64,000 nucleotides of DNA from Spirochaetia bacterium (GTDB lineage: Bacteria; Spirochaetota; Spirochaetia; SZUA-6; Bin103), in the NCBI GenBank assembly GCA_965262935.1, contig OZ253572.1, positions 6,462,066-6,526,065 of the forward strand. The letters are read 5' to 3'. Position numbers and translations under genes: made by a program. Below the pieces are notes generated by a model. It saw nothing but the letters and a program-made list of their open reading frames with translations. It had not been told where the DNA came from and made no database searches. Positions 909 through 28,172 of this stretch are shown piece by piece; the first letter of the stretch is position 1; each line of letters begins with the position of its first letter.

Positions 909-1561
909 GTCGGCTTCATGCGCTCCTGGACGACTATCTGGCACTGCGCCTCGCGCTGGGGTTCAAGCTCTGCCAAGAGCGGCAGTTACTGCCTGGATTC
1001 GTCGACTTCGTCGAGCAGGCCGGGGCGGAGTCGGTAACGGTCGAATTGGCTTTGGCTTGGGCAAAGAAGCCGACCGGAGTGAACCCGTTTCGATGGAAGC
1101 GGCGGCTCTCGATGGTGCGCGGATTCGCTCGCTATGCGCACGCGTTCCACCCAGCCACCGAGGTGCCGCCCGTTGGGCTGCTGGCTTATCGAGCCACAAG
1201 GCCCACGCCGTTTCTGTTGTCCGAGCAGGACATTACCGTACTGCTGGCGGCAGCCGAAGCGCTTCGACCGCCCCTGTTGGCAGTCACCTGCCGCACGCTG
1301 TTTGGGTTGCTGGCGGTCACCGGACTTCGCGTCGGTGAGGCTATCGATCTCGACCGTGAAGACGTTGACCTTGTTCGCCGCCTGCTGACCGTGCGCCAGA
1401 CCAAGTTCAACAAGTCTCGGCTCCTGCCGTTGCATCCGACTACCAACGACGCTCTCGCCACCTACACGCAGCAGCGAGATCGGTTCTCTCCAAACGTTCT
1501 TCACCCAGCGCTTGCTTGGCGAACGCGAGGCCAGTCCGCACACGGTAGCTGCCTACCGTGA
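905..1561 (+). pseudogene. tyrosine recombinase, C-terminally truncated. It keeps the core-binding domain and the Arg/Lys boxes but lacks the H-x-x-R, H/W and Tyr boxes.
   Basis: GTG start overlaps the upstream stop. It shows GLRVGE (Arg) and TKFNKSR (Lys), then ends about 90 aa early, where the next recombinase N-terminus begins in another frame. Confidence 0.5.
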
Positions 1562-2456
1562 CACCTTCCGGCTCCTGCTCGCGTTCACCACTGCCCGGCT
1601 CGGCAAGACGCCGTCGCAATTGCTTCTTACCGATCTCGACGTGACCGTGATCGACGCATTCCTCAACCATCTCGAACATGACCGTGGCAATAGCGCGCGC
1701 ACCAGGAACGCCCGTCTGGTCGCGATTCATTCTCTGTTCCGCTTCGCCGAGCTGCGCCATCCTGATCACGCCTACATGATCCAGCGAGTGCTCGCGATCC
1801 CGGCGAAGCGACAGCAGCGCACCGAAGTGAGCTTTCTGACCCCTATCGAGGTCGATGCGTTGCTCGCAGCCCCCGATCGTACTACGCGCATCGGTCGGCG
1901 CGACCATGCGTTGCTCGTCCTGGCTGTGCAGACCGGCCTGCGTGTTTCCGAACTGGTCGGCCTACGCCGCTGTGACGCCCATCTCGACCGTGGCGCTCAC
2001 GTACGCTGCCACGGCAAAGGACGCAAAGATCGCGTCACGCCGCTTGCCGTCCAGACGGTAGCGGTGCTCCAGGTGTGGCTCCGCGAACTCGCTGGCGGCC
2101 CGCACACCGCGCTGTTTCCCAGCCAGCTCGGCCGTCCCCTCAGCCGTGACGCGGTCGAGCGTCTGCTGGCCAAGCACACCCGCGCTGCCGTGCTCGCGTG
2201 CCCGTCCCTGGCCACCAAGAGGGTCTCACCACATGTACTGCGCCACACTGCGGCGATGCGGCTCCTGGAGGCGGGCGTTGATACTTCCGTGATCGCACTG
2301 TGGCTCGGTCACGAGAGTGTTCAGACAACCCAGGTCTATCTCCATGCCCACCTCGCACTCAAGGAACGCGCTCTGGCCAAAACTGCTCCGGCCCACACCA
2401 CTCCCGGTCGCTATCGTCCACCCGACGCACTGCTCGCCTTCCTGGAAGCCCTGTAA
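1512..2456 (+). CDS. tyrosine recombinase (XerC/D-like), complete. Third gene of the trio.
   Basis: N-terminal AAYRDTFRLLLAF core-binding motif. Catalytic boxes GLRVSE (Arg), HGKGRKDR (Lys), HVLRHTAA, GHESVQTTQVYLH (Tyr). TTG start per ORF track. Homology-like sequence continues a few codons upstream, but no start codon is found there. Confidence 0.8.
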   Translation: MLGEREASPHTVAAYRDTFRLLLAFTTARLGKTPSQLLLTDLDVTVIDAFLNHLEHDRGNSARTRNARLVAIHSLFRFAELRHPDHAYMIQRVLAIPAKRQQRTEVSFLTPIEVDALLAAPDRTTRIGRRDHALLVLAVQTGLRVSELVGLRRCDAHLDRGAHVRCHGKGRKDRVTPLAVQTVAVLQVWLRELAGGPHTALFPSQLGRPLSRDAVERLLAKHTRAAVLACPSLATKRVSPHVLRHTAAMRLLEAGVDTSVIALWLGHESVQTTQVYLHAHLALKERALAKTAPAHTTPGRYRPPDALLAFLEAL

Positions 2457-4400: not shown

Positions 4401-5540
4401 CGACGACTCGATCCCCGCGCCACCGAACCCGACTTGCTGTATGCCGTCGAGCGCAAGGCCGGCGATATTCCCGCGTGGCTGACGCCGGACCCCTGTTGGT
4501 CAGCCTTGTGCGCCCTGATCGGACGCTTCGATGGCAAGCGCGCGCGCCCCGCGGGGCACGGCCTGGTCTGGTTCTCAGCCCCCTGGGCTTTCGCAAGACC
4601 CCCTTTACCCGCGAGTTGACCGTGCGCGAGCGCTTCCCGCTCGATCCGCAGGCACAGGTCGCCGCCGCACTCGCCGAGCCTGATCGGATGGAGCGACCTG
4701 TGGCGCGACTACGACCGCCCCGAGCAAGATGGCCACCTACCTGAACTACCCCGGCCCCATCCTCAACCTGCCCACCAAGGCATCCCGCTCAACCCTCGGC
4801 TCGGATTGAACGGCCGCTGACGCGTACCGCGCGGGTCACGCTTTGCAGCATAGGCGAACCACCCCGGACTTGCCGTGGTGATTCATGCAAGCAAGCAATG
4901 GCCACAGCCGAAACTGCCCCAACCCAGCAGAGCGACAAGACCGTCACGATTGAAGTGAATGCCCACAAAGTCAAGATGCCAGCGGGCCGATCACACCAGG
5001 AGCCCAGTTCGAGCAGCGCCCAGCGCTTCAAGTGTCCCGGCGCAACAACCTCGCCCTGAGAGACAACAGAGTCGAGACGGCGGCATTCGACGATGAACTC
5101 ACTCTTATCGCACCCATCGCACCCGTAAAGGGTTGACCGCTCGCCACCTATGCTCAGGCAGCGACCGGCGCACTCGTGCGTGTCGGTGGCGGCGCTGCAT
5201 CCAGACCGGAGCGGAACGGTTCGCGTGGTGCACCGACGAGCGTATCAGACCGACCTCGCTACGACAAAAAGCTGCCCACAGTATCCAGCCGGAAGAAAGG
5301 CTGCTCAAATACCCGACTATCTTCCGCCGGACACGAAGTGCGATTTCGGCTCGCCTTGCGGATATCAGCCCGCAACTCGAGCGGCGGAGCCATCTCCCAT
5401 ATATTACAAACGGCGTGTGTTGGACCGAGCCGGACTGCGCCGACCGAAGGCGCGCGCCGCGAAACCCTCGGCGTTGGTGATGCTGGCGCTACTGCCGGTG
5501 GCCCGGATAACGTACAGTCCCTGGCGCCCGGAATGGACGA

Positions 5541-5888
5541 TCACGGAACCTCCTCGCCGTTGACGGCCAGAATGTCGAACTCCCAGCGCCGCTCCCCATA
5601 GTTCTTCTTCGCATTGGTTATCGTGTGGTCCACTGCGATGCCGCGCTGTTGCAGCAGTTTCACGAGGTCGCCCTCCACCAGGGACTCCATCAGCTTCCCC
5701 CACTGCCCGTTGAACAGCTCGTCGAGTTTGCGCAGGCGCAGGTCGGTCTCCTGCATGCGGCGGTCGGTGTCCTGACCGAGTCGCTTCAACACCTGGTCGG
5801 TTTCTTTCCGGCTCTCCGCTACCTCGCGCAGGATGTTCCAGATCTCCTCCGGCGTCGCCGGGTCCCGATGTCCGTTCTGGTCAGCCAT
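5541..5888 (-). pseudogene. DUF3782-like PD-(D/E)XK family protein, 3'-truncated. It retains only the N-terminal coiled-coil and the start of the nuclease core.
   Basis: ...GQWGKLMESLVEGDLVKLLQQRGIAVDH...ERRWEFDILAVNGEEV then a stop. Full-length relatives continue for another ~80 aa. A paralog lies at 12927..13640. Confidence 0.45.
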
Positions 5889-5901
5889 GCCGCAACCCGG
5901 C

Positions 5902-8900
5902 CTACGGGAGGTTCAGGGGTATGTCGACCTCGCTCTCCGGTATGCGGTACGCCCGGTAGCTCCAGGCATCCTCACCGGCCACGCGCATGTTCATCTCCAG
6001 GTGCGCAGTGCCGGTTACGGGGTTGACCTCGCTCACCGCGATTGTCTTGTCCAGCGCGACCGTGCGGCCGGTGGCGCTGCCGCCCCAGCTAATCAGCCAA
6101 TGCACGCTGCCGACGAAGTCTTCGAGCACGTGCACGCCGCCCCGGTAGGGGAAGTAGCCGTGCGTGGCAGGCAGCCGGTATTCGCGCTCGTACTCCGCCT
6201 GCGTTCCGGACGATATGTCGTACTCCACCGCGCGCGAGAACGCGTTAGAGTCCTTCCTGGGGCCGATGCACTGTACGCCGTTGTCGTACATTACGACGGT
6301 GTTGGTAGAGGTCAGCGTGACGTGGTGCGGTCCGCAGAACTCCTCGACGACGGCATTATCCGAATGCTCGACCAACTCCAGGAACTCGGTCGTGGAACTC
6401 TCCGGCGGCGCGGTGCCGCCGAGCTTCCACTCGACAGCGCCGGTCGTTCCGTCGATCCGCAGCACCTGCGAGCAACCGCGGGACGACACCACGAAGTCCC
6501 CGTCTGCCAGCAGTTGCAGCGAATTGAATTGAGCATAGCCCGGCGGATACGACAACCCACCTCGGAGGAACATCCCGACCTTGCAATCGGTGCCCCACTG
6601 GAGCACGTCTCTATGGGTCCAGGAGTTCCACGTGAACTCGGACACGCCGATCGCACCCGCGCTCCTGCGCTGGATGGCCGAGTCGGCAACCTGTTCGGTT
6701 TCGGTTCCTCCGTGGTCCGAGAAATCGCGCGGCTCGTCATCGTAGTAGGACAGCATCGCGTAGTCCCCGTCAGCGGCAATCTGAAAGTCGTGGCCATCGG
6801 TCTGCGACAGCGGCGACACCGTGGTGAGGGTAGCGGTCACTTCGAGCCGCTCGTTGAGCAGGTCTATCTCCCAGTTTCCGAACGGAGAGTCGTTGACGTT
6901 GAACACCTCCCTTCGGGCCACCGAGAAGCGGCTGTTGCCGTGGGGCTTGAAGTCCATCACCCAGAAGTTGGTATCCGTGAGCAGACGATGGAACCGCGGC
7001 ACGCCATTGTTGTCGACCATCGCCATGAACATGGTGCGGCTGCTGTAGCTGCCGTAGGCTGGCGTGAGGAGCAGCAGCCCGTCCTTGACCTGATCGGTCC
7101 TGGTCAGGATTTCGATGGTCGGGAAGGCGGCGGGCAGGCAGTGCACGACGTAGGTCCTGGTGTCGCCGGCGTCACTGACTTCGATCGCCAGGTCGTGGTC
7201 GCCGCCGACCGCGACACTTGCGTTCAGGATCCCGGTAGTGGATACCACGTTGTCGGCGGTATCGGCGCGCAGCAGCGTGAGTTGCGCGCCGTCGCGCCCG
7301 GTCGCTGCCGCGACGGTGAGCGTCGGCGAAGTGTTGCAGGTCAGCGCGTAGTGCAGGGTGTCGGCGTCGAACGTCGGGTACATGGCGCCGCCGCCGGTCA
7401 CCGCCAGGGATGAGAGCTCAAGCGCAGTCGAATCCAAGGGGTCCTCGGGGTCGACGGGATCCACCAGGTCCACCGGGTCCGTGGTAGTCGTATCGCCATC
7501 GTCGGCGATCGTGCCGGTGGCGCTGGCGTCGGACACGGTGGCGCCCGCGGGGTTGCTGAGCGTAACCGTGAACGTCTCGGTTTCCTCGGCGGTGCTGTCA
7601 TCCAGAATCGCTACATTGACGGTCGCCGTCGTGGCGCCGTCCGCGAACGTCAGCGTGCCGTTCGCGGACGTGTAGTCCGCTCCGGAGGTGGCGCTCCCGT
7701 CCGCGGTCTCGTACGCCACCGTGACCGTACCTCCGCTCGCCGGATCGAGTCGCACCACGAACGGCATGCTGCCGTCTCCCGAGCCCTCCGTCAGACTCCC
7801 GTTGCCGATGCTCAGCTCCGGTAACTGGTCGTTGTCCGCGATCGTCCCGGTTCCCTGCGCGGTGGCCACGGTCGCGTTCACCGCCGCCCGCAGGGTGACC
7901 GTGAACTGTTCGGACGGCTCGTCCAGCGTGTCGTCGACTACCGTTACTGCGATCGTCCGGCTCGTGGTGCCGGCACGAAACGTCAGCGTGCCGCTCGCGG
8001 CCGTGTAGTCCGAACCGGCCGCGGCGCTCCCGTCCGCCGTCGTGTACTGCACCGTGACCGTGCGTCCGCTCGCCGCGTCGAGCCGCACCACGAACGGCAT
8101 GGTGCCGTCACCCGAGCCCTCCGTCAGGCTGCCGTTGCCGATGCTCAGCTCCGGTGCCTGGTCGTTGTCCGCGATCGTCCCGGTTCCCTGCGCCGTGGCC
8201 ACGGTCGCGTTCACCGCCGCCCGCAGGCTGACCGTGAACTGTTCGTCCGGCTCGTCGATCGCGTCATCGGCAATCGGCACCGTCACCGTCCGCACCGTGG
8301 TGCCCGCGCCGAACGTCAGCGTACCGCTCACCGGCGCGTAGTCGCTCCCGCCCGTGGCAGTCACGTCCGCCGTCCCGTATTGCACCGTCACCGTGCGCCC
8401 GCTCGCCGGTTCGAGCCGCACCTCGAACCGCATGCTGCCGCCGCCCGTGCCCTCGGTTAGCCCGCCGTTGCCGATGCTCAGCCCAGGCAGCGCATCCTCG
8501 TCCTCGATCCGCCCTGTCGCCGTCAGCGTCGCCCCGCCGCCGGCAAGTTGCGCGTTGTCGGCGTTGCGCAGTGTCACCCTGAACACTTCGGTGTCCTCGT
8601 TCATGCTGTCGTCGTTCACGGTCACTGCGACCGTCTGCGCCGCCGTCGACCGCGCCGGGAACCGCAGCATGCCGCTCGCCGGCGTGTAGTCCACCCCCTC
8701 GGTGGCCGTGTCGCCGCTCGAGTCGGTGGCGTAGTCCACGGTCACGACCTCGTCGCTGGCCTGGCTCAGGGTCACGGCAAACACTATCCGGCGCGCCTGC
8801 TCGGAGGCCTGCGCCGGCGCCATCGCCAGCGTCGGTACGTCGTCCTCCACGATGATCACCCTGACCACCGGGCCGGTTACGCCGTCGTAGCCGCCGCCGC

Positions 8901-9774
8901 TCGCCGTGTGCGCAAGCTCCACCGCGATGTCGGCCAGCGCATCGATGTCCTGCTCCGCCGTCAGCGTCACCTGCCGAGCGTCTCTCCACTGCGCTGGCGC
9001 GAACACGAACTGCTCCGGGGCTATGGTCAACTCCGGTGCATCCGCCGCGGTCACGGTTACCGGCGCCGTCGGCCGTGACCCGAGCCGTACCTCGTAGCTC
9101 GCGCTTTCTCCCTCCGTCACGAACAGCTCCAGCGGCTCGATCGCCAGCGCACGGGCGTCATCGTCCTGAATCGTTCCGGTCGCCGTTGCCGACGCCAGTG
9201 TCGCCCCTTGTGGGTCGCTGAGCCGCACGGTCAGGGTCTCACCCGCCTCGTCTACCTCGTCGTCCACGAGCCGCACCTCGATCCGCTGCGCCGTGGTCGA
9301 CTCGGCCGGGAATGTGAGCCGGCCGCGCGCCGCCTGGTAGTCCGCTCCCGCCTTCGCCGTGCCCTCCACGGTGTCATAGGCCACCGTGACCGCGGCGCCG
9401 GCCGTCCCGCTCAGGCTCACCGTGAAGCGCAGCACGCCGTCAGACTCTGCTGCGCCTGCCGCCGCTATCGCCAGCACCGGCGGCCCTTCCGCCGGCGCGA
9501 CGGGCGTGCCGCCCGGCTGGTCCACCGGCGTGCTCTCCGGCTGCGCGCTGTCCGGCTGTTTCGCGGCCTCGACGTGAGCCATCTGGCACCCCGCCAGCGT
9601 CAGCGCCAGCGCCAGCGCCAGCAGTAGCGGGACAGCGGCCGACCACAGTGCTGCAGGCAGGAGCAGGCGCCGCGCTGCCAGCCGAAACGGCGACCAATCT
9701 GCCGAGCCGCCGCCGGGTGTCTGTGCGGCGCTCTGGGCGCTCTGCGCGCTCTGGCTGGAGACTTTCTGCAACAT
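5902..9774 (-). CDS. large lipoprotein (1290 aa). Contains ~7 Calx-beta repeats, a cadherin-like beta-sandwich, and a C-terminal arylsulfotransferase (ASST)-like beta-propeller domain.
   Basis: Lipobox LTLAGC. Repeated G.L.F..G.T...V.V.I.DD..DEP.E.F.V.L units with near-identical copies. A LSSLAVTGG...HYAL motif. C-terminal ~500 aa carry GHDF, WNSW and FCGPHHV motifs shared with the paralog at 10474. Confidence 0.8.
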   Translation of the reverse strand: MLQKVSSQSAQSAQSAAQTPGGGSADWSPFRLAARRLLLPAALWSAAVPLLLALALALTLAGCQMAHVEAAKQPDSAQPESTPVDQPGGTPVAPAEGPPVLAIAAAGAAESDGVLRFTVSLSGTAGAAVTVAYDTVEGTAKAGADYQAARGRLTFPAESTTAQRIEVRLVDDEVDEAGETLTVRLSDPQGATLASATATGTIQDDDARALAIEPLELFVTEGESASYEVRLGSRPTAPVTVTAADAPELTIAPEQFVFAPAQWRDARQVTLTAEQDIDALADIAVELAHTASGGGYDGVTGPVVRVIIVEDDVPTLAMAPAQASEQARRIVFAVTLSQASDEVVTVDYATDSSGDTATEGVDYTPASGMLRFPARSTAAQTVAVTVNDDSMNEDTEVFRVTLRNADNAQLAGGGATLTATGRIEDEDALPGLSIGNGGLTEGTGGGSMRFEVRLEPASGRTVTVQYGTADVTATGGSDYAPVSGTLTFGAGTTVRTVTVPIADDAIDEPDEQFTVSLRAAVNATVATAQGTGTIADNDQAPELSIGNGSLTEGSGDGTMPFVVRLDAASGRTVTVQYTTADGSAAAGSDYTAASGTLTFRAGTTSRTIAVTVVDDTLDEPSEQFTVTLRAAVNATVATAQGTGTIADNDQLPELSIGNGSLTEGSGDGSMPFVVRLDPASGGTVTVAYETADGSATSGADYTSANGTLTFADGATTATVNVAILDDSTAEETETFTVTLSNPAGATVSDASATGTIADDGDTTTTDPVDLVDPVDPEDPLDSTALELSSLAVTGGGAMYPTFDADTLHYALTCNTSPTLTVAAATGRDGAQLTLLRADTADNVVSTTGILNASVAVGGDHDLAIEVSDAGDTRTYVVHCLPAAFPTIEILTRTDQVKDGLLLLTPAYGSYSSRTMFMAMVDNNGVPRFHRLLTDTNFWVMDFKPHGNSRFSVARREVFNVNDSPFGNWEIDLLNERLEVTATLTTVSPLSQTDGHDFQIAADGDYAMLSYYDDEPRDFSDHGGTETEQVADSAIQRRSAGAIGVSEFTWNSWTHRDVLQWGTDCKVGMFLRGGLSYPPGYAQFNSLQLLADGDFVVSSRGCSQVLRIDGTTGAVEWKLGGTAPPESSTTEFLELVEHSDNAVVEEFCGPHHVTLTSTNTVVMYDNGVQCIGPRKDSNAFSRAVEYDISSGTQAEYEREYRLPATHGYFPYRGGVHVLEDFVGSVHWLISWGGSATGRTVALDKTIAVSEVNPVTGTAHLEMNMRVAGEDAWSYRAYRIPESEVDIPLNLP

Positions 9775-9883
9775 GCTCGTCCGTGCTACGATTGTACCGT
9801 TGGTTCAGGTGTGCGTCTCGGGCGCAGCGGACGTAATGCACCATATCCGCACCGCCGCAGGCTGAAGGAGTGAAGCAAATCGC

Positions 9884-10459
9884 ATGGCACAAACAGGACT
9901 GCTCGACAGGGCCGCATGCAGGACGCTGACAGGCGCCGCCATGGGGATGGTTCTCGGGATACCACTGCTGTTGAGCGGCTGTGGTGCCGCCACCCCGTTC
10001 AACCCCATCTTGCTTGAGATCTCGGAACACGTTGCTACCGGCCCCGACTTCCTGGCAGACGGGCGTATCGAGAGCGTGCACGATGTCGACTATTTCGAAA
10101 TCCTGATCAGGCGGGAGTTGGCATCCGTGATCGTGATGACCACGGGCACTACCGATACCGCTGGTGCGGTGCAAACGGTAGACCGAATGGAGATCAAGGA
10201 ACAGTGTGAGGGTGAAGAGCCCGCGCGGCCCTGCATCTTCTCCTACGACGCGGACACCGCGCACAACGTGGAGCGCTCGGACGCGTTCAACAGCATGGAA
10301 CCGTCGGGCAACTTCGTATGGGAGGGGAACCTGCCGGGTCCCGACGGCGATGAAGAATATCGCACCTACTACATTCGAGTGACGGGACAGCGCGGGTCGA
10401 CCGGCGACTACGTGTTGACCGTCGAGCTCAACGAGGGCGAAGGCCCGATGTACTCGTAG
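9884..10459 (+). CDS. lipoprotein with a pre-peptidase C-terminal (PPC)-like beta-sandwich domain
   Basis: GAAGGAG RBS. Signal peptide with lipobox LLSGC. DVDYFEI...GDYVLTVEL pattern typical of PPC domains. Confidence 0.6.
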   Translation: MAQTGLLDRAACRTLTGAAMGMVLGIPLLLSGCGAATPFNPILLEISEHVATGPDFLADGRIESVHDVDYFEILIRRELASVIVMTTGTTDTAGAVQTVDRMEIKEQCEGEEPARPCIFSYDADTAHNVERSDAFNSMEPSGNFVWEGNLPGPDGDEEYRTYYIRVTGQRGSTGDYVLTVELNEGEGPMYS

Positions 10460-10473
10460 GCGGGGCCGTTGTC

Positions 10474-12063
10474 ATGACGCACGGATTTTCAGCCGGCCGG
10501 AGACGGTTGCTCGCGGCACTCTGCATCGCGTTGGCTGCTCTGCTCGCCATCAGTTGCACGGTGCCGGGCGCGGATCGCGCGGATCGCACGGACGCGGCGC
10601 CAGGACATGGGCGGCTGAGCGCTCTACGGGTGACCGGCGGGGAGGGCCTGTTTCCCGCATTCGATCCCGGCGTGCACCACTACGCGGTGCGGTGCGAAGA
10701 TGGAACGACGCTGCAGATCGCCGCGCAGGCCGTGGACAGCGATGCCCGCCTCACGCTGCTGCACAACGGTCGCACCACGACCGGCGCCGTGGAAGAGACG
10801 GTCACGGTCAACAGCGACCACGACATTGCAATCGAAGTCCGCGACGGGCGGGGCACCTCGACCTACTACGTGCACTGCATTCCGCTTGAGTTCCCGGACA
10901 TCACGATCGAGAAACGGACCGCGGCCGTGACTGACGGCTTGCTGCTGATGACTCCCGGCGTACGCCGAAGCGAAATCTCGTGGCTGGCCATCGTGGACAA
11001 CAACGGCGTACCGCGCTGGGTGCGCAAGCCGAACGTGAGCGCGCGCAACTTCCGGCACTACGCCGACGGCCGGTACTCCTACTCCGAACGCGCCGCCGAC
11101 GGCAGTGAAGACGACACTGAAGACGCGGTGATCCTGGACGCGGAGTTCAACCGGATCGATACCGCCACGCTCGTCGGCGACCTGCTGGCCGAGCACACCG
11201 GCGGCCACGACTTTCTGATCACCGACCGCGGCACCTACCTGCTCATGTCCTACTATCCCGCGGAGCGCGATCTGAGCGGGTTCGAGTGTGAAGACGAAGA
11301 TGGTTCCGCCCGGCCGTGTTCGACGATGGAGCCCGCCGACGACTCGGTGATTCAGGAGGTGACACCCGCCGGGGACGAGGTGTTCCGGTGGAACTCCTGG
11401 GATCACCTGAAGATAGCGGATTGCACGATCCATCGCTTCCCCAACGACTATGCGCACCTCAACTCCCTGCACGAGCTGGATGGGGACATCGTGGCATCGC
11501 TGCGCGGCTGTGCGCAGGTAGTGCGCATCGAGCGTGCCACCGGCGCCGTGGTGTGGCAGATGGGCGGCACGCTGCCCATGCGCGCAGATCGGCCGATGCC
11601 TGCCACCGGCGCCGCCGCATTCCTGAAGGTGGTCGACGACCCGGCGGAAGAGTTCTGCGGCCAGCACCACGTAACCGCCACCACGGACGGCAGGCTCCTG
11701 ATGTTCGACAACGGCAACCACTGCCTCGGCGGGCGCAAGAACGAGCGCCCGTTCACGCGCATCGTGGAGTACGACATCTCTTCCGGCACCGAGGCGCGCT
11801 GGGTGCGTGATTACCGGCTGCCGCCAGAGGACGGAATCTCGACCTCCGGCGGCGGCGTGGTGGCGCTGGCCGGCACCGGCCACTGGCTCATCACCTGGGG
11901 CAACAACGGGCCGATGAACGGGGTGAGCGAAGTGGACACCACCGGCACGGAGATTTTCCGCCTGAGCATGTCCCGAAACGGTCAGAGATACGGCACCGCC
12001 CGCGTATACCGGGAAAGCGAGGCCACCCTCCGCCTGCAACCCAACTTGCCGGACCCACGCTAA
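10474..12063 (+). CDS. lipoprotein (529 aa): cadherin-like beta-sandwich plus ASST-like beta-propeller. Paralog of the C-terminal half of 5902..9774.
   Basis: Lipobox LAISC. LSALRVTGG...HHYAV. GHDFLITD, WNSWDH and FCGQHHV motifs are collinear with the large lipoprotein. Confidence 0.8.
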   Translation: MTHGFSAGRRRLLAALCIALAALLAISCTVPGADRADRTDAAPGHGRLSALRVTGGEGLFPAFDPGVHHYAVRCEDGTTLQIAAQAVDSDARLTLLHNGRTTTGAVEETVTVNSDHDIAIEVRDGRGTSTYYVHCIPLEFPDITIEKRTAAVTDGLLLMTPGVRRSEISWLAIVDNNGVPRWVRKPNVSARNFRHYADGRYSYSERAADGSEDDTEDAVILDAEFNRIDTATLVGDLLAEHTGGHDFLITDRGTYLLMSYYPAERDLSGFECEDEDGSARPCSTMEPADDSVIQEVTPAGDEVFRWNSWDHLKIADCTIHRFPNDYAHLNSLHELDGDIVASLRGCAQVVRIERATGAVVWQMGGTLPMRADRPMPATGAAAFLKVVDDPAEEFCGQHHVTATTDGRLLMFDNGNHCLGGRKNERPFTRIVEYDISSGTEARWVRDYRLPPEDGISTSGGGVVALAGTGHWLITWGNNGPMNGVSEVDTTGTEIFRLSMSRNGQRYGTARVYRESEATLRLQPNLPDPR

Positions 12064-12162
12064 GCACGAACGTGAATCGGCGTCGTTTCGTGACCAGCGG
12101 GGCTGCCTGACAGTTCACGAGACACGGGCGCCGCGCAACAAGCAGTCGCGCCCGGCGGGAGG

Positions 12163-12864
12163 CTACAGGACGGCGCCGTAGGTCTCGGTGATGGCTTTGG
12201 CGGCGTATTCGTCGGAGGCGTAGGCGAAGCCGCGGTCGCCCCAGGCGGCGCCCCAACTGTTGCGCACGATGAAGGTGTCGGCGGTGAATCCCACCAGGCA
12301 GATCGCGTGGCCGCCGCCGTCCTCCTGGTCGGGGCGATACACGGCCAGTTCGCCGTGCGTCCTGCTGGCCTGCCGCCAGGTGCGGTCCACCTCCACGCGC
12401 GCCAGGATCGGGCCCTGGTTGGACAGCCAGCGGCGCCAGGCGGTGCGGTTGCGGCGCAGGTTGTGGTAGCTGGCGATGCGGTACCTGGCCGCCATGGTGT
12501 AGAACGCGGCGACGCGCAGCGGGCTCAGGCCGCCGTCCATCGGCAGGGCGCTGTCGAGCACGCAGCCGTAGCGGCGGGCGACGCGCAGCGCCCGCTTGGT
12601 CTGGGTGCCGGCCGACTCGATGAAGGTGGTGGGGTAATCGGTGAGGCGGTCGGTTTCCTTGTTGGCCATCCAGATAAAGCGCGGCGACGGGCGCTCACCG
12701 GGCGGCAGCAGGCCGGCTTTCCAGTAGTGCCAGTGCAGCACGCCGTCGGCCGCGGCAAAGCCGACGCAGGCGCCGGTGGAGCCCTGGTCCCTGACCGGCC
12801 AGTCGGGCCGCCGCAGATCCACCTCCGGGCGCGCCTTGGCAGGCGACACCACCCCGGCCGCCAC
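12163..12864 (-). CDS. papain-like cysteine peptidase (C1 family)
   Basis: QGSTGACVGFA (catalytic Gln/Cys), GGHAICLVGF (His), NSWGAAWGDRGF (Asn-Trp). Confidence 0.75.
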   Translation of the reverse strand: MAAGVVSPAKARPEVDLRRPDWPVRDQGSTGACVGFAAADGVLHWHYWKAGLLPPGERPSPRFIWMANKETDRLTDYPTTFIESAGTQTKRALRVARRYGCVLDSALPMDGGLSPLRVAAFYTMAARYRIASYHNLRRNRTAWRRWLSNQGPILARVEVDRTWRQASRTHGELAVYRPDQEDGGGHAICLVGFTADTFIVRNSWGAAWGDRGFAYASDEYAAKAITETYGAVL

Positions 12865-15477: not shown

Positions 15478-16917
15478 CTAGTACTTGATCTTGGTCCAGA
15501 GGCTGACCACACCACTCTGGGCCGCATTGGCGCCAGAATCGATGAGCTGGCCGGTCTTCCACTTCAGGCCGAACGTAGTCGCCGGAATCGCCTCGGTCAG
15601 GACCGCCCGTACCTCAAACGCCACGCTGGCGTCACCGCCATCGAGCTGATTGACGGTGACCGTCGTGCCCGGAGTGAGCGTGCCGCCGAACGTGTCGCTC
15701 AGGTGGTAGTCCAGCTTGCCTTCCACGAACAGATCCGACTCGTCGTTCACGTCCTGCGCGGCGGCCTCTGCTGTGTCGCCGTTGGTGATGTCGAACATCC
15801 CCCACGTCAGCGACAGGTCGAGACTCTCCACGAGACCGTTCTTGTCGGACAGGTTCACCTTTACGTCAGTGGCGACCGATGCCACGTTCGAGAAGATGAA
15901 GTCCGACTTGAGGGTGGTGTTCGGGGTCAGCGTAACGGTCGCGTTACCGCCCGCTTCCCAGTACATGGCCTCGTTTACGTCGGTATCCACGTTGTCGTCT
16001 TCCTGGGTCATCTGAACATCGGCACCCGCGGAGAGGGAGACATCGCCGAAGTCGGTCGTCAGCTTGGCACCGATGCCGGTGTCATCATCCTTGTCGCTAT
16101 CTTCGGGTTCGTCACCATTTTCGAGGCCTTGCACAAACGCCAAGTCGAGCGTGGCCGGTCCGACGTTTACCTTCAGATCGGCACTGATCGCGTAACTGCC
16201 GTCGTGAGCAGCCTTGGTCTCATCCAGATACTTGGTAGCGTCAACGTCTTTGACACCGTCCTCGGACTCGGAGTCATACGCCTCCTCGGAGAGGATCCCC
16301 ACCGCGATGCTCAGGTCGGCGGTGGTGTAGCCGACCGTGACGCCGTGGCCGTTTAGGTCCAATCCAACATCCTTATCCGCATCATGACTCTCGGCCGCGC
16401 GGTCGTCGTCCTCATCGTCCTCAATGTGTGGGATCAGATCGGCCTTGCTTGCAGGCGCGGCGAATATCTGCAGCCAGAGCGGGCCGTTCTTGAGCGTGGC
16501 GACGATGTCCGGCTCCACGACATACAGCTTGCTGCGCCCCTTCTTCTCTTCGACGCCCTTTAGATCAGGCATCGTTTTGCCGTCTGGGACCGACGCGGTC
16601 GTAGTCACGAACTCGGTGGAGTCCTCGTCGTCACTGTTGATGACGATCTGGAAGTCGTTCAACTCGATCGAGCCGTACCATCCTCCTGACATGTCGACCA
16701 TCTCGGAGTTGTTGGTCGACTGCTTGGCGACGAGCACGATCTTGATGTTGGCGCTGGACTCGTTCTTGAATCCGAACTGCTCATCATCGATGTCGTAGCC
16801 CGCAGTGACAGTCGCATCACCGGAGATGCTGAAGTTCGTTCCGATTGCCATTTGCCCATACAGGCCGGCAGAGCCCGCGGCAAGTAGCACCACTAGCAGA
16901 AGTGAGAGTTTCTTCAT
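15478..16917 (-). CDS. secreted, very acidic protein with a C-terminal aromatic residue. Putative outer-membrane beta-barrel or porin-like protein.
   Basis: Strong RBS AAGGAGGAAGTG before the ATG. Signal peptide MKKLSLLLVVLLAAGSAGLYGQ. Alternating hydrophilic/hydrophobic strands. Ends ...SLWTKIKY. Local GC is markedly lower than the neighbours. Confidence 0.6.
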   Translation of the reverse strand: MKKLSLLLVVLLAAGSAGLYGQMAIGTNFSISGDATVTAGYDIDDEQFGFKNESSANIKIVLVAKQSTNNSEMVDMSGGWYGSIELNDFQIVINSDDEDSTEFVTTTASVPDGKTMPDLKGVEEKKGRSKLYVVEPDIVATLKNGPLWLQIFAAPASKADLIPHIEDDEDDDRAAESHDADKDVGLDLNGHGVTVGYTTADLSIAVGILSEEAYDSESEDGVKDVDATKYLDETKAAHDGSYAISADLKVNVGPATLDLAFVQGLENGDEPEDSDKDDDTGIGAKLTTDFGDVSLSAGADVQMTQEDDNVDTDVNEAMYWEAGGNATVTLTPNTTLKSDFIFSNVASVATDVKVNLSDKNGLVESLDLSLTWGMFDITNGDTAEAAAQDVNDESDLFVEGKLDYHLSDTFGGTLTPGTTVTVNQLDGGDASVAFEVRAVLTEAIPATTFGLKWKTGQLIDSGANAAQSGVVSLWTKIKY

Positions 16918-17524
16918 CACTTCCTCCTTCACTTATTGCCGGGGCCTATTACATCGGGGCCCTTAGCTGGGCCAACGACCCGCAGAACCCTCGCCCCCGC
17001 TATCCGATGGCGCAATAATGCATTGCCCAATCGGACGTTGTCAACCTGTTGCGCCCCGGAAATCGAGTAGCCGCTCACCTTGCGGTCAGCGGGCGCACGA
17101 TCAGTCTCCAGAACTGGTCAACTCCAGGATACTCCTACAGTAACGCCAGCGCAACCGCCAGCGCAACAGAGGGAGAATATCACGAAGCCACCACTGTGTA
17201 AACAGTCACCGGAACGGGCATTATGCCCGCACGTCCAAACAATTGCAAGCGGCCCGCCTCCTTTGCGGAAGCCGCACCTTGTACCAGGATGCGAACGCTG
17301 TCAAACACGCGTTCTCCGAGTGTATCAATGCAATAGTCATGCCAAGCTGCGATGGTGGAAAAAGGACCGTGGCAGGCTACCACAAGGGCGGCGCACACGG
17401 TAATCATGCGTCTCATAGGTGACATTTTTGTAGGAAATGATAGCAAAGGCTACGCACACGTAGGGTAAGGACCTTGCGAAACAGGTTGACCGGCTGCGGC
17501 GGCGGTCGTAACATCGCAATTCGC

Positions 17525-28099: not shown

Positions 28100-28172
28100 G
28101 GGCGATTAACTCAGCGGTAGAGTGCTACCTTCACACGGTAGAAGTCACTGGTTCGATCCCAGTATCGCCCAA
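28100..28172 (+). tRNA. tRNA-Val (anticodon CAC)
   Basis: Cloverleaf read by eye. Acceptor stem GGGCGAT/ATCGCCC. D-arm TAACTCAGCGGTAGAGTG. Anticodon arm CTACC-TTCACAC-GGTAG. T-arm GGTTCGATCCC. CCA is not encoded. Confidence 0.85.

Follow-up and report, generated by a model that had tools for sequence, protein, structure and literature searches.

The 64,000-nucleotide window analysed here is part of contig OZ253572.1 of a Spirochaetia bacterium (assembly GCA_965262935.1, positions 6,462,066–6,526,065 of the forward strand), and the locus in question holds three predicted lipoprotein genes, two of which encode large proteins that end in a beta-propeller of the arylsulfate sulfotransferase (ASST) type. 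The three open reading frames (ORFs) have exactly the coordinates and lengths reported in the first-pass annotation, a reading of the bare sequence, and their positions and strands bear out its description of two large genes arranged divergently around a smaller middle gene. The 109-bp spacer that separates the middle gene from the 1290-aa gene has no sigma-70-like promoter match. The 529-aa gene starts only 14 bp after the end of the middle gene, which suggests that these two are probably co-transcribed.

5902–9774, minus strand: gene for the 1290-aa lipoprotein, with leader, six Calx-beta-type units, cadherin-like sandwich and ASST-type propeller (ORF, Pfam)
9775–9883, no strand: divergent intergenic region of 109 bp that separates the 1290-aa gene from the middle gene (sequence)
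9884–10459, plus strand: gene for the middle lipoprotein of 191 aa, a divergent sandwich resembling pre-peptidase C-terminal (PPC) and collagen-binding domains
10474–12063, plus strand: gene for the 529-aa lipoprotein, with leader, cadherin-like sandwich and ASST/Cpz4-type propeller

Both large proteins share a collinear C-terminal module, as the first-pass annotation had proposed: BLASTP aligns residues 786–1290 of the longer protein with residues 47–526 of the shorter one at 40% identity (E = 1e-97), and the motifs GHDF, WNSW and FCG(P/Q)HHV occur in both. The module opens with a cadherin-like beta-sandwich, for which PF12733 (curated gathering cut-off 24.2 bits) passes when residues 41–144 of the 529-aa protein are scanned alone (31.0 bits, E = 3.5e-7) and falls marginally short for residues 780–892 of the 1290-aa protein (23.2 bits, E = 9.2e-5). 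In the propeller that follows, PF14269 and PF05935 exceed their cut-offs of 27 and 24.2 bits in both proteins, with 62.9 bits (E = 4.4e-17) and 58.9 bits (E = 5.6e-16), respectively, in the 529-aa protein and 33.0 bits (E = 5.3e-8) and 44.4 bits (E = 1.4e-11) in the 1290-aa protein. This six-bladed propeller is closer to solved ASSTs than to other propeller families, and its active-site residues align with those of AssT from Escherichia coli CFT073, so that its earlier assignment to the ASST type holds. The parts of the module lie as follows.

5905–7119, minus strand: ASST-type propeller of the 1290-aa protein (aa ~886–1290)
6325–6327, minus strand: codon of His1150, which matches AssT His436
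6529–6531, minus strand: codon of Gln1082, at the position of AssT His356
7120–7419, minus strand: cadherin-like beta-sandwich of the 1290-aa protein (aa ~786–885), below the PF12733 cut-off and aligning to the domain of the 529-aa protein
10615–10881, plus strand: cadherin-like sandwich of the 529-aa protein (aa 48–136)
10897–12051, plus strand: ASST/Cpz4-type propeller of the 529-aa protein (aa ~142–526)
11665–11667, plus strand: codon of H398 of the 529-aa protein

The active site of AssT consists of His252, His356, Asn358, Arg374 and Thr501, and the reaction passes through an intermediate sulfo-His436 (PMC13426309). A family profile built from 26 members matched the structures of Cpz4, an enzyme of the caprazamycin pathway in Streptomyces sp. 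MK730-62F2 (9kf4/9kf6; E = 6e-26), and of AssT (3elq; E = 2.6e-5), and in the profile alignment the AssT stretches NWAH356VN358S, SSR374 and TQH436 pair with YAH328LN330S, SLR344 and GQH398 of the 529-aa protein. The mature AssT numbering was verified on the CFT073 assT gene beside dsbL and dsbI (offset 27), and the entry for the H436N mutant (4p04), which has Asn in the exact H398 column, confirms that this is the column of the nucleophile. His252, in the stretch HESIETPNGTVLL, pairs with H245, in the stretch HDFLITDRGTYLL, by a local match of 6 of 13 residues and by the Cpz4 alignment. The equivalents in the 529-aa protein are thus H245, H328, N330, R344 and H398, and the set that coordinates the sulfuryl group (His252, His356, Asn358 and Arg374 in AssT) is complete. 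Conservation, counted over 122 family members, is strict for the nucleophile (His in 117 of 117 ungapped sequences) and for N330 (121/121) and high for R344 (115), H328 (114) and H245 (104); six cysteines are invariant in the family alignment as well. The nucleophilic histidine is also invariant in orthologues of the 1290-aa protein.

In agreement with their annotation as lipoproteins, all three proteins begin with a hydrophobic signal peptide that ends in a lipobox cysteine (LAGC63 in the 1290-aa, LSGC33 in the 191-aa and AISC28 in the 529-aa protein). Cys33 of the middle protein is unchanged in 20 of 20 homologues, and a comparable lipobox cysteine was found in many members of the ASST family. 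The three proteins are predicted to be lipidated and may be exposed at the cell surface.

9586–9774, minus strand: leader of the 1290-aa protein (aa 1–63), ending in the lipobox L-A-G-C63, read from the sequence, with a predicted signal peptidase II site
9971–9982, plus strand: lipobox LSGC33 of the 191-aa protein
10555–10557, plus strand: codon of Cys28 of the 529-aa protein

Between its leader and the shared module, the 1290-aa protein carries a stalk of Calx-beta repeats (PF03160, E = 7.5e-97, five stretches passing), while the Calx-type NCBIfam matches to this protein are all below threshold and NCBIfam returns nothing for the 529-aa protein. Dissection resolves six units of ~105–115 aa, of which five are canonical and one, U2, is degenerate and was recognised by eye. 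The presence of Calx-beta repeats reported at first reading is therefore correct, but the count of about seven given there has to be lowered to five canonical units plus one degenerate unit.

7489–9477, minus strand: whole Calx-beta stalk (Pfam and unit dissection)
9160–9477, minus strand: U1 (aa 100–205)
8836–9159, minus strand: U2 (aa 206–313), degenerate, with no Pfam Calx-beta match
8491–8835, minus strand: U3 (aa 314–428)
8158–8490, minus strand: U4 (aa 429–539)
7825–8157, minus strand: U5 (aa 540–650)
7489–7824, minus strand: U6 (aa 651–762)

The first-pass annotation had further described several units as near-identical at the nucleotide level and the gene as prone to assembly collapse, and on both points its argument about repeat identity and instability was overstated. 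Tandem Repeats Finder reports a period of 333 bp with 2.5 copies and 84% matches, but even the most similar pair, U4 and U5 (7825–8490), reaches only 82% nucleotide and 74% amino-acid identity, with U5/U6 at 74%, U4/U6 at 68% and the remaining pairs below 60%, and the longest exact word shared between units measures 36 nt. Positions 5686–12500 are 99.4–99.6% identical to three contigs of 0.5–0.76 Mb from other samples (L001–L003), and a shorter contig (L004) overlaps them in part; none of the four has a 333-bp insertion or deletion relative to the window. The 663-aa Calx region is free of gaps at 99–100% identity in four independent assemblies from different samples, and the 1290-aa protein recurs in other assemblies with a length of 1287–1290 aa. 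That the gene or its repeat region is an assembly artefact, produced by collapse or expansion of the tandem repeats, or that the gene is a pseudogene, is exceedingly improbable: the 333-bp periodicity and a 2-bp deletion in L003 that moves the annotated start would fit such an explanation, but the reading frame is unbroken across 3.9 kb, and misassembly is ruled out by the divergence of the units and by the independently reproduced repeat count.

The deletion in L003 falls in a tract of about three 9-bp copies (GGCGCTCTG; 9727–9754) at the 5' end of the 1290-aa ORF, which codes for SAQ repeats ahead of the hydrophobic leader. One copy fewer is present in L001 and L002, and in L003 the deletion shifts the frame, with the result that the called gene starts at Met65, lacks the leader and encodes 1226 aa. 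The tract could be a contingency (phase-variation) tract, the differences could be sequencing errors, or the true start could lie elsewhere.

Among species, stalk length has changed in the course of evolution: orthologues of the 1290-aa C-terminal module (55–80% identity) measure 484–894 aa, as against 1290 aa here, and two of them have other immunoglobulin-like (Ig-like) domains in place of Calx-beta. Acidic motifs (DDxxxExxExF and IxDDD-type) are seen in U1 and U3–U6, and the acidic loops of these units may bind Ca2+.

The PPC domain assigned to the middle lipoprotein is borne out by its fold and by remote homology, but is not detected by Pfam models. Neither Pfam nor NCBIfam reports any domain in the 191-aa protein; PF04151 gives no match at E ≤ 10, and among 20 homologues scanned at the same limit only one is matched, at E = 0.12. 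The fold of the protein matches collagen-binding domains. A search of 1.84 billion representative proteins with a profile of the family returned 496 proteins at E ≤ 0.001, many of them large repeat proteins that are matched repeatedly at profile positions ~61–110 and 160–190. Of ten matched proteins passed through Pfam, nine (446–869 aa) contain PF04151 well above threshold; the one exception is a protein of 234 aa, closely related to the middle protein, which lacks any Pfam match. The domain (10049–10432, plus strand; aa ~56–183; fold and profile search) is a PPC/collagen-binding-domain-like beta-sandwich whose inserted loop of ~50 aa holds two cysteines that are invariant. Two homologues of 333 aa (P0159) and 358 aa (P0253) each match the family profile in two stretches, and the alignment of P0159 contains an additional N-terminal PPC-like copy without the ~50-aa insertion.

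Diversity is locally raised within the middle gene, at 9998–10273. Relative to the near-identical contigs, there is a 9-bp insertion or deletion directly after the lipobox and there are clusters of single-nucleotide polymorphisms (SNPs) at 10015–10065 and 10269–10273, and the 191-aa protein is ~95% identical in amino acids to its counterparts there, as against 99.8–100% identity for the flanking ASST genes.

Linkage of the three genes is found outside the window as well. The middle gene lies immediately upstream of a 529-type ASST gene at five other Spirochaetia loci (L007, L009, L010, L013 and L014), orthologues of both large proteins, each at ~75% identity, occur in linkage in L008, L013 and L015, and L013 repeats the divergent arrangement of all three genes seen in the window. 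The two paralogues are only 40% identical to each other compared with 72–81% for the orthologues of each in other species, and their linkage has been kept, so that a recent local duplication can be ruled out in favour of an old, conserved pair.

A scan of species-representative genomes, among which the source genome itself is not included (best match 72% identity), returned 74 distinct loci of the family. Many of these are concentrated in a few metagenome-assembled genomes (MAGs) of 5–7.4 Mb labelled "MAG: Spirochaetia bacterium", with at least six in OZ244929 and at least eight in OZ242313, and further loci belong to Dehalococcoidia, Tepidiformaceae, Acidimicrobiia (Ca. Poriferisodalis, Aldehydirespiratoraceae), Binatia, Acidobacteriota, Ca. 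Spongiisociaceae and other groups. Poriferisodalaceae and Aldehydirespiratoraceae are families with sponge-symbiont lineages, and cadherin (including PF12733), fn3 and Calx-beta domains are enriched in sponge symbionts (PMC11706023); Calx-beta is also enriched across sponge microbiomes (PMC9531527). ASST is mentioned in neither of these papers, and a literature search found nothing relevant that ties arylsulfotransferases to sponge symbionts or sponge Spirochaet lineages. The family is large and multi-copy in marine MAGs, apparently those of sponge symbionts, and by analogy with these relatives the organism of the window may be associated with sponges too. In Dehalococcoidia MAGs (L053 and L066–L071), three to four cadherin-like plus ASST genes form tandem arrays, often with a Calx-beta-like unit before each, which shows that the family has also expanded independently in a second phylum.

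The locus is bordered upstream by three tandem tyrosine-recombinase ORFs and downstream by a papain-like peptidase gene and a gene for a single-stranded DNA-binding protein (SSB). The recombinase ORFs (111–908, 704–1561 and 1512–2456, plus strand) overlap in tandem and all match PF00589; the trio at 111–2456 looks like a mobile element of the "recombinase in trio" type, three tyrosine recombinases in a row are likewise present in L003, and the stretch between the trio and the ASST genes is variable among strains. Homologues of the papain-family gene adjoin ASST paralogues in L013 (87% identity) and L040 (83%), which makes it a recurrent neighbour. Further downstream lies a gene for a very acidic 484-aa protein that begins with a classical signal peptide and has no Pfam match; it could be an outer-membrane or surface protein. 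The lone Rfam match across the whole window is a tRNA gene.

12163–12864, minus strand: gene for a papain-family (C1) cysteine peptidase of 233 aa, without signal peptide (PF00112, E = 1.4e-12)
15478–16932, minus strand: gene for the acidic 484-aa protein
28100–28171, plus strand: tRNA gene

Taking the domain content, the fold, the conservation of catalytic residues and the gene linkage of this correctly assembled locus together, we consider it probable, if far from certain, that it encodes two anciently diverged, lipid-anchored, extracytoplasmic ASST-family members that act independently of 3'-phosphoadenosine-5'-phosphosulfate (PAPS), together with a small divergent lipoprotein of the PPC/collagen-binding type. 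The finding is real and its first interpretation was largely correct, apart from the overstated argument on repeat identity and instability and the small correction to the repeat count. By analogy with AssT and Cpz4, both ASST-like proteins would be active enzymes that take the sulfuryl group from a phenolic sulfate ester onto H398 (529-aa protein) or H1150 (1290-aa protein), hold the resulting sulfo-histidine in a His/His/Asn/Arg pocket and pass the group on, in a ping-pong reaction, to a hydroxyl group on an acceptor; this group could belong to a phenol or, as with Cpz4, to a sugar. Sulfation of a sugar hydroxyl has been described for Cpz4 (PMC13426309) and sugar sulfation for both LipB and Cpz4 (PMC11576661). 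The six Calx-beta-type sandwiches would serve as a stalk that spaces the catalytic module of the 1290-aa protein from the membrane and possibly binds Ca2+ or host matrix, and the PPC-like lipoprotein could be a binding or accessory partner.

Several observations weigh against this reading of two tethered sulfotransferases. Identity to Cpz4 is only 23%, the sequence match to AssT spans only ~110 residues around the active site, and the equivalent of Thr501, which a low-confidence profile alignment places on or near S-T-S-G-G-G (aa 456–461), could not be mapped. Across the subfamily, the sulfotransferase assignment is a homology-based prediction. The 1290-aa protein keeps three of the coordinating residues but has Gln1082 at the His356 position. 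The Gln1082 codon is identical in L001–L003, where neither it nor the His1150 codon carries a SNP, and close orthologues all have His at this position, which makes the exchange a real, lineage-specific change; it may leave the 1290-aa paralogue inactive, weakened or altered. The lipobox of the 529-aa protein (A-I-S-C) is non-canonical at –3, and a scan of 5400–12400 for sigma-70 promoters and intrinsic terminators returned zero sites, which speaks neither for nor against co-transcription. Among the neighbouring genes, no sulfatase or other sulfur-metabolism gene was seen, nor any donor-synthesis genes such as the type III polyketide synthase (PKS) and PAPS sulfotransferase that serve Cpz4.

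Two other functions have to be weighed. The ASST-fold propellers could chiefly be hydrolases, i.e., extracellular aryl-sulfate esterases for which water would be the acceptor of the sulfuryl group and which would free sulfate or desulfated aromatics from compounds of the host or the environment. The sulfo-histidine chemistry could equally end in hydrolysis, neither an acceptor nor a donor pathway is encoded nearby, and the numerous paralogues per genome resemble expansions of catabolic enzymes, whereas the characterised family members are transferases (PMC13426309, PMC11576661); the sequence itself offers no feature that would distinguish the two, and we regard this alternative as unlikely. 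Equally doubtful in our judgement is a non-catalytic role, with the propellers binding sulfated or phenolic ligands of a host matrix and the Calx-beta, cadherin-like and PPC domains mediating attachment, in the manner of "eukaryotic-like" symbiont proteins. Such adhesins would suit the enrichment of PF03160 and PF12733 in sponge symbionts (PMC11706023, PMC9531527), the likeness of the PPC fold to collagen-binding domains and the loss of the His356 equivalent, which is Gln in the 1290-aa protein and F, V, W, Y or D in other family members. The strict conservation of the nucleophilic histidine, with N330 and R344 nearly as constant, argues against them, since it is hard to explain without catalysis, and the 529-aa protein retains the entire mapped set of residues.

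If the two large proteins are indeed tethered sulfotransferases, a lipid-anchored, stalked and multi-copy ASST would point to the extracellular exchange of sulfate esters as an ecological function. A wider proposal, which we put forward tentatively and hold to be possible but speculative, is that a large family of envelope-tethered, PAPS-independent enzymes composed of a cadherin-like domain and an ASST, in many cases with a stalk of Calx-beta or other Ig-like domains, has spread horizontally as a symbiosis trait among sponge-associated bacteria of many phyla (among those seen are Spirochaetia, Chloroflexota, Acidimicrobiia, Binatia, Acidobacteriota and Gammaproteobacteria), where they would re-sulfate or desulfate glycans of the host matrix or phenolic defence metabolites outside the cell. 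Should this be true, part of the Calx-beta and cadherin enrichment in sponge symbionts would reflect an enzyme family and not adhesins, which would give some of these "eukaryotic-like" domains a concrete enzymatic meaning, and a collagenous matrix would be the site to which the PPC-like lipoprotein directs the enzyme. The family would also be a pool of PAPS-independent sulfotransferases related to the sugar-sulfating Cpz4, and as such would be useful to explore for biocatalysis. Since the assignment predicts a known type of enzyme from homology, its importance is moderate.

The ASSTs that have been characterised are soluble enzymes of the periplasm or of biosynthetic pathways, and to our knowledge their natural substrates are mostly unknown. 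The closest solved relative of the module is Cpz4, itself a PAPS-independent sulfotransferase of the ASST type. Some family members are already labelled "aryl-sulfate sulfotransferase [Spirochaetaceae bacterium]" at NCBI, so that the assignment to the enzyme family has precedent. What is new is the architecture of the locus, a variant of this known kind of enzyme that combines a lipoprotein leader, a cadherin-like domain, a Calx-beta stalk and a PPC partner. It is part of a large, uncharacterised subfamily whose members appear to be concentrated in marine bacteria associated with hosts. E. coli AssT is a soluble periplasmic dimer encoded beside dsbL and dsbI, whereas the proteins of the window are predicted lipoproteins with no dsb genes nearby, and the His356 of AssT is replaced by Gln in the 1290-aa paralogue. 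For the middle protein, the nearest known fold is that of the collagen-binding domains of clostridial collagenases (ColG s3a/s3b and ColH s3; PF04151). PPC domains form the C-terminal tail of secreted peptidases and are cleaved off on maturation, whereas the 191-aa protein is a stand-alone lipoprotein without a peptidase domain. The five canonical units with acidic motifs resemble those of Calx-beta repeat surface proteins (PF03160); elsewhere such repeats belong to adhesins or form the regulatory domain of exchangers, whereas here they build the N-terminal stalk of a predicted enzyme.

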